IMG/VR virus record: IMGVR_UViG_3300029305_011606
From: an uncultured virus (IMG/VR IMGVR_UViG_3300029305_011606)
Taxonomy: Duplodnaviria > Heunggongvirae > Uroviricota > Caudoviricetes
Length of the DNA stretch: 64,000 bases
Reading direction: 5' to 3' (one strand)
Made by a program: the position numbers and the translations under genes. This document shows, piece after piece, positions 20,707 through 27,458 of the stretch; position 1 is the stretch's first letter, and each line of letters begins with the position of its first letter. The notes below the pieces were generated by a model, which saw only the letters and a list, made by a program, of their open reading frames with translations, made no database searches and was not told where the DNA came from.

Positions 20707-20815
20707 CTGTCTGTGCTTCGATGAAAATATATCTGGGTTTGAAAGCATATAACGCTTGACTTTCATCGCTTTTAGAGCGTAAATGTCACTACCAAAACGA
20801 AAGGAGGTCAAGCCT

Positions 20816-21769
20816 ATGACCATTAGAACGAACTGTACCACCGACCGCAAGGTCATGGTGCGCCGCCTGGCCGAGCATCTCGGCGTTCGCGCGGAATACC
20901 TTGGCGTGCCGAACTGCGGCTACCGGGTGGGTGAACTGACGGTTGACCGCAATGCGGTAATCGCAGGCGCCCCGGAGCTTCTTCAGCAGATCACACCTTT
21001 CCTGATGGAGAACGGCTACATTCACGAAGCTCCCCAGCAGCCCGCCGATTCAGAAGCGGACCAGACTGTAGAAGAAACAGTCGCCCCGGAAAGAGCTGTC
21101 CCGGAAGAGAGCACAGAAGAAAGCATGGAAGATACCACGCAAGATGAAGCCTCTGCTGATTCAGAAGCTACTGACCAACAGATTACGCAGATGTGCGTGA
21201 GCGTTCCGCTATCCGAATTCACAGCATCCAGCTTGACCAATGTACTCAAGCTGGTTTATGCCAGGCAATCCCTGATCGCAGCCATGACACAGTGTGACAA
21301 GATCTACATTCATGAGGAACTCATGGATCTGCTTCAGGATGAGAAGCCGGACACAGTGGAACGGATTTGTGAACTGTTGGAGGGCGAGATTCATGCCGGC
21401 ATGGTGTGCGGCATTGAGATTCAGGAAGACCGCTTCACATTGAGTTTTCCCTATGATGAAGCACAGCCCACTCGCTGGACAGCCTACGCCAATTTGCTGA
21501 CTGCCATTGTGAATCGTTCCAAGATTGCCCACCACATCAGCGGCAAGCGCCTCAATCCGGAAGATGAAGAGATGAAATACTTCTGCCGGAACTGGCTGAT
21601 CCAGCTGGGACTGGGCGGAGCAGCACACAAGGAGACACAGCACATTCTGCTGGACCACCTCAAGGGCTTCGCGGCATTCAGAAGCGCAGCCAAGATGGAC
21701 GCACACAAAGCCAAGTACGCTGCGCTCCGCAAAGAGCGCAGGGAGGAGGTACACCATGAAGCTGATTGA
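20816..21769 (+). CDS. Phage hypothetical protein ('virulence-related' family)
   Basis: YLGVPNCGYRVG N-terminus; KYFCRNWLIQLGL..LLDHLKGFAAFR C-terminus related to the amidoligase C-terminus; RBS AAGGAGG. Confidence 0.75.
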   Translation: MTIRTNCTTDRKVMVRRLAEHLGVRAEYLGVPNCGYRVGELTVDRNAVIAGAPELLQQITPFLMENGYIHEAPQQPADSEADQTVEETVAPERAVPEESTEESMEDTTQDEASADSEATDQQITQMCVSVPLSEFTASSLTNVLKLVYARQSLIAAMTQCDKIYIHEELMDLLQDEKPDTVERICELLEGEIHAGMVCGIEIQEDRFTLSFPYDEAQPTRWTAYANLLTAIVNRSKIAHHISGKRLNPEDEEMKYFCRNWLIQLGLGGAAHKETQHILLDHLKGFAAFRSAAKMDAHKAKYAALRKERREEVHHEAD

Positions 21770-22268
21770 CAAGCGCCTCGCCGATTTGAAAGCCCGGCAG
21801 GAAGCCGGAGCGCACCTGCCTTGCCCTCGCTGCGGCAGGATGACCATGAAGGAGAAGCTCCACACCAACGCGCTCAGCCGCATCGCGGACATGAAGATCT
21901 GCGATTCCTGCGGCACGGACGAAGCAAAGCTGGCATTCATGAACGCGCCGAACTGCCTGTACCAGTGGGCGGCGCTTCAACCCAACCGACCCGATGGCGA
22001 TTTCAAAGCTGTATCAGGTGAGGAGGCTATGAAAATCATCTGCTGCGAACAGTCCGGCACACTGGTGGAACTGTTCATGCGCGCCGAAGCCGGGGATGAT
22101 GCGGATGAGATTCGCTTTACAGCATTTGAAAGCCTGCCCGGTCTGACTGAACTGTGGACGCAGCCCTTCCAGGCAACCTACCGCGCCAAGGACGGCACAG
22201 TAATGATTCGTGTGCGCCAGGGTGACGGTCAGGTGGAACTGGCCGCAGACCTGATCGATGGAAAGTAA
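21756..22268 (+). CDS. Zn-ribbon hypothetical protein
   Basis: CPRCG...NALSR...ICDSCG.DEA. Confidence 0.75.
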   Translation: MKLIDKRLADLKARQEAGAHLPCPRCGRMTMKEKLHTNALSRIADMKICDSCGTDEAKLAFMNAPNCLYQWAALQPNRPDGDFKAVSGEEAMKIICCEQSGTLVELFMRAEAGDDADEIRFTAFESLPGLTELWTQPFQATYRAKDGTVMIRVRQGDGQVELAADLIDGK

Positions 22269-22300
22269 CGCTGACACACCTAAATTTCAAAGCTGATTTG

Positions 22301-22340
22301 AAAGCAGTCCAACGTGCAATGCGCGTCGGGGCTGCTTTTC
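22301..22340. terminator. Terminator hairpin
   Basis: AAAGCAGTCC..CG..CG..GGGCTGCTTTT. Confidence 0.6.
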
Positions 22341-22499
22341 TCGTTGCGCACGTGTGCCCCACAAAGCACCACGTCGGGCTTTGACCTCGGCTTCGAGGGT
22401 ATTCCCAAGCTCAGCCTCCTCGCGGCAACGTGGGCGCGACAGAGGGCGACGTTTTCGAGGCAATTTGAAAGCCCTGGGCATCGCAGCCCCCCTCAAAGA

Positions 22500-22545
22500 C
22501 AAAAAGGCCGCCAGCCTCAACCGATTGCTCGGCGGGCGGCGGCGA
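22500..22545 (-). terminator. Terminator of the inverted cassette
   Basis: On the minus strand GCCGCC...GGCGGCC followed by TTTTT. Confidence 0.6.
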
Positions 22546-22563
22546 TTTGTTAGCCATACCGGT

Positions 22564-23157
22564 TTACCAAAGCCGGAACTTCGGCTGGTAGGAGGTGTTG
22601 CTGTAAAGCAGTCCTCCATCCTCGATGAACTCCCCGACCGTGGCGATGTAGCCGCTGGCATCCATGATGGCCAGTTTCGATTTGGCAAGCCTGTAGATCA
22701 GGTCGAGTACGTTCTGCCGCTTGAGGTCGTCCTTGCGGCGAAGGATGGCGGAAAGGTAGTCGGTGATGAAGATGGCCGTGTCGCTGAACTCGTGATTGTT
22801 GGGGTCGCTGGTCATGCGGATGATTCCGTTGTGTGCGACGCCGCACTTGCATTCGAGGTCGAGGGCTTTCATCAGCGCGGGGCGATTTGAAAGCGGAAAG
22901 GGATGCGTCATTTCGGGACCGACACCCGCTTGGGTGCTGATTCGGAAGTGGTAGACCACGTTGTCCGCTGTGGTGAAGCGTTCCGATTCGATAGCCCGCT
23001 GGAAGTCGCCCAAGTCCATGAAGCCCTTGTGGATGTGGACCTTGCCGTCCCGTGCGTACATGTAACCCGCGCCGTGGGGATTGTTGTAAAACATGTTCCG
23101 AATGGTGGTCTTGCTGGGCTGCTTCGCCCCAGCGGGAGAAACGCAGATGATGCACAT
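22564..23157 (-). CDS. Class II (Ntn) glutamine amidotransferase-like protein
   Basis: N-terminal MC, NPHGAG, HFRIST, HPF, HNG, SDT motifs; RBS AAGGAGG. Confidence 0.85.
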   Translation of the reverse strand: MCIICVSPAGAKQPSKTTIRNMFYNNPHGAGYMYARDGKVHIHKGFMDLGDFQRAIESERFTTADNVVYHFRISTQAGVGPEMTHPFPLSNRPALMKALDLECKCGVAHNGIIRMTSDPNNHEFSDTAIFITDYLSAILRRKDDLKRQNVLDLIYRLAKSKLAIMDASGYIATVGEFIEDGGLLYSNTSYQPKFRLW

Positions 23158-23343
23158 AATGTGGTACCTCCTTGATTTGGTAGCTTGTGTGTCGTGTTGG
23201 GTGGTGCATCGAAGGGTCTTGATTTCAAACCTTCCGGGCGTTACATTCATCACTCTTTCTGGGTGAAATAGCAACCCGACCGATGCACCAGTCATTCAGC
23301 GGTTGGATTTGTTCATATCCACCGGCTGGATTTGGAAGCTGTG

Positions 23344-23562
23344 TCATGCGGTGCGCTTGAGGTACTCTTCGGGGTACGCGGCCTCGGTGCCGGCGTGTAC
23401 CCGGAGGAGGAAACGGGCGCGCTTTCTCAATTCAGGAAGCACTCGCTTCACCCGCTCCTCGCCGTCGAGCTTGGAAAGCAGGATGTGATTGATGTACTCG
23501 TAGGTCTCATCGTCATACCAGTCGAAGATGTCCATACAGGCTTCAAGGGTCAACTTGGTCAT
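23344..23562 (-). CDS. Small hypothetical protein downstream of hammerhead 1
   Basis: RBS GGGAGG-AACACACC-ATG supplied by the repeat. Confidence 0.7.
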   Translation of the reverse strand: MTKLTLEACMDIFDWYDDETYEYINHILLSKLDGEERVKRVLPELRKRARFLLRVHAGTEAAYPEEYLKRTA

Positions 23563-23613
23563 GGTGTGTTCCTCCCTGGGCTGATGCCCGTTTTGATTTG
23601 GAAGCGTGTGGCT

Positions 23614-23667
23614 CCCGCGACCCCTTTCGGGGTTTCGGCTCATGCCACCGAGCCATCGTCAGGCGGG
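23614..23667 (-). ncRNA. Hammerhead ribozyme 1 (type I)
   Basis: CCCGC-CUGACGA-U-GGCUC(loop)GAGCC-GAAA-CCCC(GAAA)GGGG-UC^GCGGG. Confidence 0.9.
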
Positions 23668-24246
23668 TTTCTTTTCGACCATCAGGACGTAGCCCTTGCC
23701 GCGCGCCTCGATGTCGTAGCGCACCCTTCCATCGCGGGTGTGCTTGCGGCGCACTCTGGTGATGTCCTCCAGCTTCACACTCTTCATGCGGGGCTGGCGG
23801 CGGAGCCAGTGTAAGGCAATCGATTTGTAAGCGTCGCCAAGGTCGGTGTAGTCGGGGATCTTCTTTTGCTTCCAGCGGGCGAATCGCTTTTCGGCGCAGC
23901 GCTTGCCGTCCACAAGGGTGGTGTAGTAGCCCTCGCGGAGTCGGTCGAACTTGATTTCAAAGCGAGTGTCAAGGTGGTTGTTCCAGATCGTTTTCCAGCC
24001 GCCGGTCAGGTCGTCTGTGCATTTGCCGACCCGAATGGTCAGGAGGTCGCCGTAGGCTTCGCCGAAGGAGCCGCGGGTTTCGATCAGAACCCGAAGCACC
24101 TCGGAGCCGTTGGTCAGGTCGATGTGTGCCATCTCACCCTGGCTGCCGCCCATCGTCTCGGGGTTGATTTGGTAGCCCTGTGCGAGAAGCTCGGTCACCT
24201 TCTGGGTGTAGAGGGTGCGGATGTCGTTCATGGTGTAAACCTTCAT
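23659..24246 (-). CDS. Hypothetical protein (195 aa) bracketed by two hammerheads
   Basis: RBS from the repeat; stop TGA lies within the CUGACGA core of hammerhead 1. Confidence 0.8.
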   Translation of the reverse strand: MKVYTMNDIRTLYTQKVTELLAQGYQINPETMGGSQGEMAHIDLTNGSEVLRVLIETRGSFGEAYGDLLTIRVGKCTDDLTGGWKTIWNNHLDTRFEIKFDRLREGYYTTLVDGKRCAEKRFARWKQKKIPDYTDLGDAYKSIALHWLRRQPRMKSVKLEDITRVRRKHTRDGRVRYDIEARGKGYVLMVEKKPA

Positions 24247-24296
24247 GGTGTGTTCCTCCCTGGGCTGTTGCCCATCTTGATTTGGAAGCGTGTGGC

Positions 24297-24351
24297 TCCC
24301 GCGACCCCGTTGGGGGTTTCGGCCTGTGCCGGAGGCCATCGTCAGGCGGGA
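24297..24351 (-). ncRNA. Hammerhead ribozyme 2 (type I)
   Basis: UCCCGC-CUGACGA-U-GGCCU(loop)AGGCC-GAAA-CCCC(CAAC)GGGG-UC^GCGGGA; compensatory stem II changes relative to copy 1. Confidence 0.9.
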
Positions 24352-24391
24352 CTTGATTTGAAAGTTCCCCGTGGGGGAGGCTCCCCGTGTG

Positions 24392-25261
24392 TCAGGAAGC
24401 CTGCCGCCATGCGCCGTTGCCGGGAAGGAGCTTGGTCAGGTGTTTGCGGGCGGTCTCGAATTCGTCTCCGATGAAACCCAGTTGGAGGAGCCAGCATCGG
24501 AAGGTGTACTTTGGGTTGTCGGTGACCGGCCTTGTCGGGCTGGCGGCCTTGCTGGAAAGGGCCTTATGGCTGATGGCCATGCAAAGCTGGATGTAGCTTT
24601 TGATCTCCCCTGCGTGGAGGGTCGCGTTGAAGGCGCGGAACTCGATGGTGTGCGCGGGGCGCTCGGTGGAGAAGGTCGCGTGAAGGTTGAGAAGGTGGTA
24701 GCGGCTTCCGTCGTAGTGGCTGGCCGCTCTGTAGGCCCAGTGGCGTTCGTTGTACCAAATCGCAGCGAAGGCTTCCATCGTGCGGGGCTTGCGTGTGTTC
24801 AGACGCTGAAGGAAGTCCTGTTCGACGGGCTTGCACCATTGGTGTCTGCGGCTGGGGCTGATGCCCAGGGCCTGTGTCAGAAGGTCTTCCTTCGCGTTGA
24901 TGATGTTGACCAGCCGCCGCAGGCTTTCGGGGGTGTGTTCCCCGAGCCCGATGTGGATGTGGATTCCGCAGGATCCGTCCACCTTGGCGCCCGCCTTGCG
25001 GATGGCGCGGACCACCTCTTGGACCATCTCGATGTCCTCCCAGCGGCAAACCGGGCTGACCACCTCTGCCGAGGGGTCGGTGACCGAGCCGTCGCGCTCG
25101 ACTGTCCACTTTCTGCCGTCGGGCATCGGGACTTCCCAGTTACCCAGGTGTGTGCCTACGTAGTGTGCGGTCGTACTAAAGTGGTCTGCGATGGCCTTCG
25201 CGGTCTTTTCGCGTCCCAAGCCCGTGGTTTCCAGTTCGATGCCGAAAGTCTGGTTTTTCAT
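24392..25261 (-). CDS. Putative amidoligase (COOH-NH2 ligase family)
   Basis: FGIELE, W..ERDGSV, EVVSP, SCGIHIHI, RYHLLNL, TIEFRAF; RBS AAGGAGG. Confidence 0.9.
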   Translation of the reverse strand: MKNQTFGIELETTGLGREKTAKAIADHFSTTAHYVGTHLGNWEVPMPDGRKWTVERDGSVTDPSAEVVSPVCRWEDIEMVQEVVRAIRKAGAKVDGSCGIHIHIGLGEHTPESLRRLVNIINAKEDLLTQALGISPSRRHQWCKPVEQDFLQRLNTRKPRTMEAFAAIWYNERHWAYRAASHYDGSRYHLLNLHATFSTERPAHTIEFRAFNATLHAGEIKSYIQLCMAISHKALSSKAASPTRPVTDNPKYTFRCWLLQLGFIGDEFETARKHLTKLLPGNGAWRQAS

Positions 25262-25959
25262 GGGGTTGCCTCCTTTTCGTTCCCCGTGGGGTGTTCCCCG
25301 CGGCGTGACACATTCATCACTCTTTTTGCCCGAAATAGCAACCCGACCGAACCACCAAATAATCGCCCCCAACGACGGTGCGCCATCGACAAAGAAAAAA
25401 CGGCTTCCTATATAGCGCGCGAACGCGCCCGAGCGCCCGCCCGCGAGAAAATCAGCTGGACCATGTCATCGCCTTAACCCGTCACAGCCCGCCCCGAAGC
25501 TTGCATCTGTTTCGCGCAAAACCGCCGAAAAAGGGGCTTTTCGGGGGCATATAGCGCCCCTCCGCCCCCTTTTTGCCGCCCAAATCGCGGCTTTTTGCCC
25601 CGGAACACCCCCAATGTGCCGGAAAAACCGCCCCAGATCGGGGCCCCGGGGCCAGATATCTTCCCGGAAGGCTCCGCCCGGGCCGCCCCAGGGCGCGCAC
25701 GTTGCGCCACGTTCGCCCGGCTTTTGCCGCGCACCCAGCCGCCGCGCCCGCGGCCCCCGCCCGCGACAGCCCCGAAAAAGCCCCAACGCTGCCCCTTTTG
25801 CCGCCAGCCGGCCTTTTTGCCCCGTTGCCCGCCCCAACACCCCGCCCGCCGCCGTTTGCGTCGCCCGTCGTGCCGCCGCCCGCGCCCACCAGCCGCCCCG
25901 CCCCGGCACACTTTCGCCGTTCGCCACAACGCCGCTTCGCCGTGGAGAAGTGTGCGGCC

Positions 25960-26046
25960 CAGGGGGGCCTCGATCCTCGTGCGCGACCTCCAAGCGACCG
26001 CCGCCCCCTCTCGCGTAAAATTCCGCGAAATTAGGGGCCCCGGGGT
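25960..26046 (+). other. Candidate cos (packaging/cohesive end) region
   Basis: CGCCGCCCC at 25999-26007, followed by the TCGCG-TAAAATTC-CGCGA inverted repeat and flanking G-runs, upstream of the MTase-terS-terL operon. Confidence 0.55.
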
Positions 26047-26093
26047 CTACGCCCCAAAAAGCAAAAAAGCCGCCCTTGTGACGGCGTGTTCGC

Positions 26094-26167
26094 GCTGTTG
26101 TAGCTCAAAGGCAGAGCAGCTGATTTGTAATCAGCCCATCGCGGTTCGAGTCCGCACAGCAGCTCCA
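26094..26167 (+). tRNA. tRNA-Thr(UGU)
   Basis: Acceptor GCTGTTG/CAGCAGC, D-stem GCTC/GAGC, anticodon arm GCTGA-TTTGTAA-TCAGC, GGTTCGAGTCC T-arm, encoded CCA. Confidence 0.88.
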
Positions 26168-26210
26168 ATTATTCAGTTATCGTAGGAAGAAATGATCAGG
26201 AGGAAACCTC

Positions 26211-27458
26211 ATGAATACAGAAATGACGATCAAGCGATTGCCGGTGAGCATGCTCAAGCCGGCGAAATACAATCCTCGAAAGGATCTGAAGCCGGGCGAT
26301 CCAGCTTACGAGAAAATCAAGCGCAGCCTTCACGATTTCGGCTATGTCGATCCTGTTATCTGGAACGAGGTGACTGGCAACATCGTGGGCGGCCATCAGC
26401 GTTTTAAGGTGCTGACTGCCGAGGGTGCGACCGAGATCGACTGCGTGGTCGTTCACATCGAAAATCCGCAGGATGAAAAGGCTCTGAACATTGCGCTCAA
26501 CAAGGCGGTCGGTGAATGGGAGCCCAAGGCGCTGGCTGACCTGATCTCTGATCTCCAGCTTTCTGGCTACGATGTGGGCGCTACCGGCTTTGACGCTGCC
26601 GAGGTGGATGATCTGTTCTCCAAGGTCCATGATAAGGACGTGAAGGATGACAACACCAATCTGGATGCGGAAACGGTGGAGCCCTTTGTCAAGCCCGGCG
26701 ACCTGTGGATGCTGGGCCGACATCGCATGATCTGCGGCGATGCGACCAGCGAGGAGGACATCAACACCCTCATGGGGGATGTGAAGGCCAACCTCATCGT
26801 GACGGATCCGCCGTACAACGTGGCATACGAATCTGCGGATGGTAAGACCATCCAGAACGACAGCATGGAAGATGAAAAGTTCTACGCCTTCCTGCTTGCT
26901 GCTTTCCAGAACTGGCGGACACATCTGGCGGAAGGTGCGTCCGCTTATATTTTCCACGCGGATACGGAGGGGTTGAATTTCCGTCGCGCCTTTAAGGAGG
27001 CGGGCTTCCACATCAGCGGCGTGTGCATCTGGGTCAAGAACTCCCTAGTGCTGGGCCGCAGTCCGTATCAGTGGCAGCATGAGCCGGTTCTGTACGGATG
27101 GTTGCCCAACGGCAAGCATAAGTGGTTTGCTGATAGGAAGCAGACAACCATCTGGAACTACGACAAACCTAAGAACAGCAAGGCGCATCCCACCATGAAG
27201 CCTATCCCGCTTCTGGCTTATCCCATCAAAAACAGCTCTGCGCCCAACGGTGTGGTGCTGGATACCTTTGGCGGTTCCGGCAGTACGCTCATTGCCTGTG
27301 ATCAGACGGATCGCATTTGCTACACCTCTGAGCTTGACCCCAAGTATGCGTCTGTCATTGTGCTGCGGTACACGGAGGCGGCCGGAGCAGCGAATGTGTC
27401 TGTTCTCCGGGATGGAAAAACCATGACGCTGGAAGAGGTCATGGCTGAAAAGAACTGA
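26211..27458 (+). CDS. ParB-like domain + N4C/N6A DNA methyltransferase
   Basis: YNPRK..VGGHQR N-terminal domain; TDPPY, HPTMKP, DTFGGSGST. Confidence 0.92.
   Translation: MNTEMTIKRLPVSMLKPAKYNPRKDLKPGDPAYEKIKRSLHDFGYVDPVIWNEVTGNIVGGHQRFKVLTAEGATEIDCVVVHIENPQDEKALNIALNKAVGEWEPKALADLISDLQLSGYDVGATGFDAAEVDDLFSKVHDKDVKDDNTNLDAETVEPFVKPGDLWMLGRHRMICGDATSEEDINTLMGDVKANLIVTDPPYNVAYESADGKTIQNDSMEDEKFYAFLLAAFQNWRTHLAEGASAYIFHADTEGLNFRRAFKEAGFHISGVCIWVKNSLVLGRSPYQWQHEPVLYGWLPNGKHKWFADRKQTTIWNYDKPKNSKAHPTMKPIPLLAYPIKNSSAPNGVVLDTFGGSGSTLIACDQTDRICYTSELDPKYASVIVLRYTEAAGAANVSVLRDGKTMTLEEVMAEKN

Follow-up and report, generated by a model that had tools for sequence, protein, structure and literature searches.

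Tandem type I hammerhead motifs around a single gene in the amidoligase operon of a gut phage fit the punctuation of a polycistronic RNA

Clusters of hammerhead ribozymes in prophages were described by Perreault et al. (2011, PLoS Comput Biol; PMC3088659), whose passages on these arrays report motifs in the same orientation that flank individual genes or small groups of them, with enclosed genes of inconstant identity. The same passages propose processing into operon- or gene-length mRNAs and state that three tandem arrays were cleaved in vitro and one in E. coli, that no circular or spliced products were detectable, and that pseudoknot contacts occur in all three hammerhead types. A 2019 review, where it touches on bacterial and phage hammerheads, states that further work is needed to define their role (PMC6765202). 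Here, we analyzed a 64,000-nt stretch of DNA from an uncultured virus of the Caudoviricetes (IMG/VR record IMGVR_UViG_3300029305_011606; hereafter, the window), in which two hammerhead motifs, A and B, bracket one gene of an operon headed by an amidoligase gene. The locus adds a good new example to an arrangement known from prophages since 2011, and it does not represent a new kind of system; the original prediction, which had been made from the sequence of the window, overrated its novelty in this respect. A second point of reference is the insulator RiboJ, which consists of the sTRSV hammerhead and a 23-nt hairpin before the ribosome-binding site (RBS). Its authors, who report that RiboJ increased mRNA approximately 2-fold and protein 2-10-fold, suggest that the terminal hairpin stabilizes the transcript (PMC6206723).

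The sense strand of the locus is the minus strand, and all hammerhead coordinates refer to the minus strand of the window. A repeat search of the window identified a direct repeat at 23559-23646 and 24243-24330 (88 nt, 91% identity, spacing 684), with a unit of approximately 109 nt each once the indel-bearing part of stem II is counted. Each unit contains a full type I hammerhead core, as originally predicted. In hammerhead A (24298..24350), stem I is formed by CCCGC (24350-24346) and GCGGG (24302-24298), and the core CUGACGA (24345-24339) is followed by an extra U (24338), stem II (GGCCU/AGGCC, 24337-24333/24325-24321), GAAA (24320-24317), stem III (CCCC/GGGG, 24316-24313/24308-24305), U 24304, and C17 at 24303. 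Hammerhead B (23614..23667) has the same stem I (23667-23663 paired with 23618-23614), the core CUGACGA at 23662-23656, the extra U at 23655, a stem II of GGCUC(G)/(U)GAGCC, GAAA at 23636-23633, and C17 at 23619. The 5′ core (C3 U4 G5 A6 N7 G8 A9) and the 3′ core (G12 A13 A14) are canonical in both copies, and in both of them stem III is closed by an A15.1-U16.1 pair that precedes C17. The stem II hairpin measures 5-6 bp across the copies, and its sequence differs between A and B by compensatory changes; the stem III loops also differ (CAAC and GAAA, respectively). Both of these differences bear out what had been noticed initially.

The three helices surround the core, with stems II and III capped by loops and stem I open, and a covariance model that we built aligned both copies end to end. 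With its filters off, this model scored hammerhead A at 75 bits (E 7.7e-16) and hammerhead B at 63.4 bits (E 4.4e-13), and the next best site in the window scored 9.2 bits. A pattern of the core and stem III matched exactly two places in the 64 kb and had 0 matches in 100 shuffles. When copy A was folded alone, its minimum free energy (MFE) structure was the three-way junction, and the MFE structure of copy B folded alone takes up the pseudoknot strands in place of stem II. These strands are loop II and the tail AGCCAC that follows stem I at 24292..24297 in hammerhead A and at 23608..23613 in hammerhead B. The pseudoknot between GUGGC and GCCAC that had been predicted was found in copy B (5 bp), and copy A offers just GGC and GCC (3 bp). 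Judged by their sequences, both motifs are bona fide type I hammerheads that look active.

Relatives of the two motifs were retrieved from IMG/VR by a pattern that fixed stem I and the core and left stems II and III free. At least 124 loci were obtained, with 129 distinct pattern matches including the window, and 105 of these matches passed a filter on stems and flank (stem II of at least 3 bp, stem III of at least 2 bp, downstream flank of at least 30 nt). The covariance model was seeded with seven gapless relatives; an alignment by MAFFT misplaced stem II and was replaced. The model detected 127 sites, which came from 99 viral loci and the window (100 sources in all), and the cleavage-site column was C in 124 of these 127 aligned sites. 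Covariation was computed on the 121 distinct rows of the model-based alignment. In the stems, 97.0% of cells were paired, as compared with 77.3% in shuffles, and 311 cells carried double changes, as compared with 83 expected; neither value was attained in any of 500 shuffles. Both sides varied in 13 of the 16 stem pairs, and sliding the 3′ partners as a control lowered pairing to 35-48%. The retrieval pattern fixed stem I and the core and the alignment was fitted to the model, so that the free evidence of covariation comes from stems II and III, together with the additional sites that the model found. The pseudoknot between loop II and the tail was likewise recorded family-wide, with 79.7% paired cells versus 72.2% in shuffles (0/500 attaining the value), 28 double-change cells versus 8.7 expected, and, in an independent swap test, at least 4 bp in 57% versus 28%. 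Conservation of the core and covariation of the stems in homologous repeats, the absence of which the original prediction had named as refuting it, were both found.

Across the family, these motifs occupy the junctions between cistrons. Among the 118 members with enough flank, a Shine-Dalgarno (SD) sequence, a start codon, and an open reading frame (ORF) of at least 30 codons occurred within 60 nt after the predicted cut in 84 members (median 41 nt), and the same start signals were present at 21% of random positions in the same loci. An upstream open frame ended within -60..+12 of C3 in 114 of the 118 members, and for 40 of these 114 the stop codon was the UGA of the core. Near homologues of ORF1, the gene enclosed by the two hammerheads of the window, all 57 model matches were on the coding strand. 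A hammerhead was located no more than 100 nt upstream of the gene in 15 of 26 closer ORF1 relatives, and no hammerhead match was present at any of 54 more distant ORF1-homologue loci (about 35% identical). The relatives carry 2-5 hammerheads per 3 kb. The densest layout that we noted is that of an IMG/VR contig (L147) with five hammerheads within 3 kb, all on one strand and approximately 290-930 nt apart, which is denser than in the window. Motif integrity, covariation, and conserved intergenic placement were all observed directly. That the hammerheads lie on the coding strand, exactly in the interval from a stop codon to the RBS that follows it, fits the punctuation of a polycistronic RNA, in line with the proposal made initially.

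In the window, hammerhead A is predicted to cut between 24303 and 24302 and hammerhead B between 23619 and 23618, in each case after C17. The piece between the cuts (24302..23619) comprises 684 nt and carries one gene, ORF1 (24246..23659); as foreseen, both cuts and the length of the piece follow from the geometry of the motifs, and the ends are predicted, not measured. The stop codon of ORF1 (UGA, 23661-23659) is the UGA of the CUGA core of hammerhead B, and the released RNA would retain this stop codon because the predicted cut lies 40 nt downstream of it. Leader A (24247..24302) would form the 5′ end of the 684-nt product, as judged from its sequence, the fold of the 3′ product, and the same layout in relatives. 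It comprises a predicted hairpin (GGGAGC 24300-24295/GCUUCC 24289-24284), the motif CAAAUCAA (24284-24277), a small hairpin (GGGC 24273-24270/GCCC 24265-24262), and the SD sequence GGGAGG (24260-24255). Leader B (23563..23618) precedes ORF2 and, by sequence, repeat, and fold, has the layout of leader A. The leader and RBS after both ribozymes are identical (GGGAGGAACACACC-ATG), with starts at 24246 and 23562, which agrees with the earlier description of a shared leader. The proposal that ribozyme, leader, and RBS form a portable header also found support, as this composite recurs in many phages and the CAAAUCAA leader motif is conserved across phages.

The 5′ hairpin is predicted at nt 3-19 of both 3′ products of the window, in which the RBS lies at a distance of 43-48 nt from the cut. 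In the family, folding of the first 32 nt gave an MFE structure with a paired 5′ end for 111 of 115 distinct 3′ products, and GCGG followed by CYGC within +8..+26 was present in 82 of the 115 products as compared with 23 in a control stretch. The hairpin complementarity of 4.52 exceeded that of a letter-shuffle control (3.77). Such hairpins bear on a reading in which the hammerheads act as a regulated switch: cleavage would not be constitutive but would depend on how stem I competes with the downstream hairpin, or on a factor bound to the CAAAUCAA leader, and would in this way set the ratio of ORF1 to amidoligase expression during infection. In most family members, the 3′ strand of stem I has such an alternative partner, and the conservation of the leader motif across phages is also consistent with this reading. 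However, neither a ligand pocket nor an extra conserved domain was seen, and the alternative hairpin may be confined to RNA that has already been cleaved; we consider a switch quite unlikely. On the plus strand, at 23577-23590 and 24261-24274, the complement of the small leader hairpin and the A-rich CAAAUCAA tract scores as terminator-like in the antisense direction, which could block antisense transcription or be a coincidence.

We consider it probable that the hammerheads cut the operon mRNA into gene-length pieces with hairpin-capped leaders before the RBS. According to this mechanism, each ribozyme would fold as the operon is transcribed, with a 5-bp stem I, hairpin stems II and III, and loop II held by the pseudoknot against the tail immediately 3′ of stem I, and would cut after C17. 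Three RNAs would result: an amidoligase message whose 3′ end is a structured ribozyme bearing a 2′,3′-cyclic phosphate; a 684-nt monocistronic ORF1 message; and a downstream message beginning at ORF2. The new 5′ ends would carry a 5′-OH, and the freed strand of stem I would refold into a 5′-terminal hairpin, followed by the conserved leader and a strong RBS. By analogy with RiboJ, the likely effect would be that the stability and translation of each cistron are uncoupled from its upstream neighbor. In this scheme we infer that cleavage takes place in vivo, that the operon is transcribed as one polycistronic RNA, and that stability and translation are affected. Punctuation is the best-supported mechanism and agrees with the published proposal.

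Several results weigh against this interpretation. The tertiary elements are weak, the pseudoknot of copy A being just 3 bp and stem I just 5 bp, and both copies contain a non-canonical extra U between A9 and stem II. Rfam, whose hammerhead models had been suggested as a check, returned no hammerhead match in the whole window at gathering thresholds and none at E≤10 on 1101 nt or 78 nt around the copies. The hairpin complementarity of the 3′ products (4.52) did not clearly exceed the value of 4.33 under a 3′-strand swap (maximum 4.57), and the 5′ hairpin is a predicted, conserved complementarity and not demonstrated covariation. Six of 21 public runs include part of the stretch, as assembled contigs throughout, and in the four contig runs that were compared neither the starts nor the ends were usable and none of the joints fell at a predicted cleavage site; one contig from an RNA library starts approximately 5 nt upstream of the cut of copy B, which is uninformative for contigs, and the comparison speaks neither for nor against cleavage. 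A sigma-70 scan of 22000-26400 yielded 0 promoter-like sites, and because of this the polycistronic transcript is deduced from gene order alone.

The Rfam results were followed into the family. At gathering thresholds, Rfam gave no hammerhead match in 20 related loci, in 19 of which our covariance model found 48 sites, none attaining the Rfam gathering score. The type I model RF00163, run directly on three related records, produced sub-threshold matches alone (15.7-26.8 bits): relatives lacking the extra U received 21-27 bits, with per-genome E values of 5e-6 to 3e-4, and one site in phage PV036454.1 received 15.7 bits. The gathering score of RF00163 is 34 bits, a cut-off set by the database that does not define the ribozyme class. 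The extra U after A9 was present in 76 of the 121 distinct family rows, and because so many rows share it, it is a conserved feature of the class and not damage or decay. The Rfam type I model misses an abundant class of phage hammerheads, mostly with the extra U, and routine annotation consequently leaves such sites unmarked. Sequences from this phage class, above all ones that carry the extra U, should be added to the type I model.

The same observations bear on a reading of the two motifs as inactive relics, which would have lost cleavage through the extra U and the short stem I and been retained as neutral repeats. Scores below the Rfam thresholds would be expected of relics, and probable relics were noted in and next to such arrays. 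Between the amidoligase stop and hammerhead A, local alignment revealed a probable hammerhead remnant with the leader motif (24352..24402, minus strand), which aligned to hammerhead A and its leader with a score of 29 that none of 500 letter shuffles attained. This 51-nt remnant lacks GAAA, the cleavage site, and the 3′ strand of stem I, and is probably a dead hammerhead copy. Elsewhere, one member of a three-hammerhead array (L036:890-958) has the core CAGACGA, in which U4 is changed, and a weakened stem I, and is likely to be an inactive copy within an otherwise intact array. Hammerheads A and B, however, both have intact cores, their stem II changes are compensatory between the copies, and the extra U is conserved in the family; we regard it as very improbable that they are relics.

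The original prediction had also raised a retrozyme-like, circular coding RNA, in which a host RtcB-type ligase or the reverse reaction of the ribozyme would close the 684-nt ORF1 RNA (23619 to 24302) into a stable and translatable circle. The chemistry of hammerhead ends suits ligation by RtcB. Stem I and the tail are common to both copies, and the excised 5′ end could dock on its own 3′ ribozyme remainder; the predicted local hairpin, however, captures the 5′ strand and would compete with this docking. Like retrozymes and viroid-like circular RNAs, the window has two direct-repeat hammerheads that bracket a unit of 600-1000 nt with ligatable ends, but those RNAs, as the sources describe them, are non-coding and eukaryotic and replicate through circles (PMC4918200, PMC5680766, PMC6765202). 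The unit of the window, of type I, encodes a conserved 195-amino-acid protein in an operon of a double-stranded DNA phage, and no Pfam match to an RNA ligase or a reverse transcriptase was obtained among the 51 window ORFs scanned. The failure to detect circular or spliced products from such arrays, as given in the account of Perreault et al. (2011; PMC3088659), also argues against circles. This reading found no support here and appears highly unlikely. If it were true, cassettes bounded by hammerheads would supply gut phages with circular mRNAs that are proof against exonucleases, and phages could also swap these cassettes by means of the shared headers. Two joints in the contigs, one from 23668 to 24387 (with a side of 25 letters) and one that goes back 118, from 24360 to 24243, are most simply explained by relatives with other cassette layouts and are neutral on cleavage and circles.

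Comparison with related phages indicated that the slots between hammerheads hold variable genes. The amidoligase is common to the window, PV036454.1, and PV036419.1 (73-82% identity), and a downstream gene, here called the Met-Cys gene, is common to the window and PV036454.1 (69%). Three hammerheads in PV036454.1 bound a 101-amino-acid gene and then two small genes, and two hammerheads in PV036419.1 surround a 103-amino-acid gene. None of these four slot genes (one homologous pair and two more) matched ORF1 or ORF2 by blastp at E≤1e-3; the expectation that related phages have different ORFs between the repeats was thus borne out. In one metagenome contig, 23333-23651 is replaced by 303 other letters, starting from inside hammerhead B. 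In the variable columns of the alignment, copies within a locus were somewhat more alike than copies from different loci (0.50 vs 0.37), and the pair in the window reached 0.64. Within one phage lineage, unrelated genes occupy the hammerhead slots and the flanking genes are kept, which suggests cassette-like exchange; duplication and exchange of header modules would fit this variation.

These findings, together with the dead remnant at 24402-24352, are also what would be expected if the 90-110 nt header were primarily a module boundary at the DNA level, serving as a homology patch for swaps of accessory genes, with RNA cleavage secondary. A homology patch, however, could do without a catalytic core; nearly all copies nevertheless have the core unchanged, and the covariation of the stems keeps structure and not sequence. 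A boundary function can coexist with cleavage and is no replacement for it, and we consider it unlikely as the primary explanation.

As judged from its gene content, the window is essentially the whole genome of a temperate gut phage. It codes for an S24/helix-turn-helix repressor, an S-adenosylmethionine synthetase, a family A polymerase, a VapE-like protein, an SNF2 helicase, and ParB-like proteins, as well as the small and large terminase subunits, portal, capsid, and tail proteins, and two serine recombinases. Among named records, those closest to it belong to Christensenellales phages of human feces and are filed under Ca. Heliusvirales. The hammerhead operon lies on the minus strand between the replication and packaging modules, in the order amidoligase, hammerhead A, ORF1, hammerhead B, ORF2, a 186-nt spacer, and the Met-Cys gene.

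The amidoligase gene (24392..25261, minus strand) is the upstream cistron and was assigned by sequence, PF12224 (E 2.1e-60), and phrog_2443. We took its start at ATG 25261, behind AAGGAGG, and not at the TTG of the mechanical ORF (24392-25372); the PF12224 match begins at residue 39 of the TTG-start ORF. ORF1 (23659..24246, minus strand; 195 amino acids), a conserved phage protein and the only gene on the predicted 684-nt RNA, has no Pfam match, and its sole family match is a PHROG of unknown function (phrog_38037, E 4.9e-27). It is a real gene, with at least 458 homologue clusters, none of them named and none with a Pfam domain. The AlphaFold model of ORF1 was confident (predicted local distance difference test 89.6). 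Among structural matches, the best by Foldseek were PUR-alpha and MRP1/2 (E 0.03-0.1, template modeling score approximately 0.2) and the best by VIA-align were cystatin-like chains (Z 5.8 over 59 residues); we rejected these candidates as within noise. ORF2 (23344..23562, minus strand; 72 amino acids) has the same RBS and leader and would be the first gene of the downstream cleavage product; it had no family match in the Pfam and PHROG scans. The Met-Cys gene (22564..23157, minus strand; MCIIC..., 197 amino acids) is the conserved downstream frame gene. Its start is most likely ATG 23157, behind AAGGAGG, the mechanical ORF (22564-23295) starting too far upstream. In PV036454.1, this gene comes directly after a third hammerhead.

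The surroundings of the operon contain further features. A second header is repeated on the minus strand (23243-23290 and 25310-25357; 48 nt, 88% identity), where its copies occupy untranslated DNA ahead of the Met-Cys gene and of the amidoligase gene. The core of this header, GUUGCUAUUU-N7-AGAGUGAUGAAUGU, was found at 14 viral loci, AT-rich phages among them, and in every case an RBS and a start codon follow it at a distance of a few tens of nt; the 48-nt header had no Rfam match, and its two window copies share no common fold. Upstream of the operon, the region 25480-26060 is G-rich, with repeated GGGGC-AAAAAG-like units and two terminator-like hairpins, and a 175-amino-acid ORF within it has no family match and may not be a gene. 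On the plus strand, a second, divergent amidoligase-like gene is located at 20783-21769 (phrog_2443, E 8.8e-24), and a tRNA gene at 26094-26164 (Rfam, 58.1 bits) lies between the hammerhead operon and the ParB-methylase/terminase genes.

A literature search returned no paper linking hammerheads with amidoligase, and the words hammerhead, ribozyme, and amidoligase are absent from the paper describing the Heliusvirales. Relative to RF00163 (Hammerhead_1), the window copies share the ribozyme class and topology and differ in falling below the 34-bit gathering score. Like the prophage clusters in the account of Perreault et al. (2011), the window has two hammerheads in gene orientation, 684 nt apart around one gene of a phage genome; it differs from those described there in being a type I pair in the amidoligase operon of a gut phage. 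Further features of the window copies are the extra U after A9 and the shared leader with the predicted 5′ hairpin and CAAAUCAA, a leader that the passages on these arrays do not mention; the subclass may already be listed elsewhere in that paper. The present analysis adds the detail that Rfam under-calls the class, that the form with the extra U is the majority, that the leader resembles RiboJ, and that variable slots occur in a conserved operon. The locus is a compact test case, in that its two ribozymes enclose a single gene within an operon frame that is conserved.

The composite header is a natural counterpart of the RiboJ insulator and makes the idea of stability and insulation directly testable. 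Both have a hammerhead, a retained 5′ hairpin (predicted in the window), an RBS, and a gene, and in both a standard 5′ end, independent of the upstream context, would be expected. RiboJ, as its report describes it, was engineered from a plant satellite ribozyme and placed after a promoter, whereas the module of the window is natural, lies between cistrons, and would reuse the strand of stem I for its hairpin.

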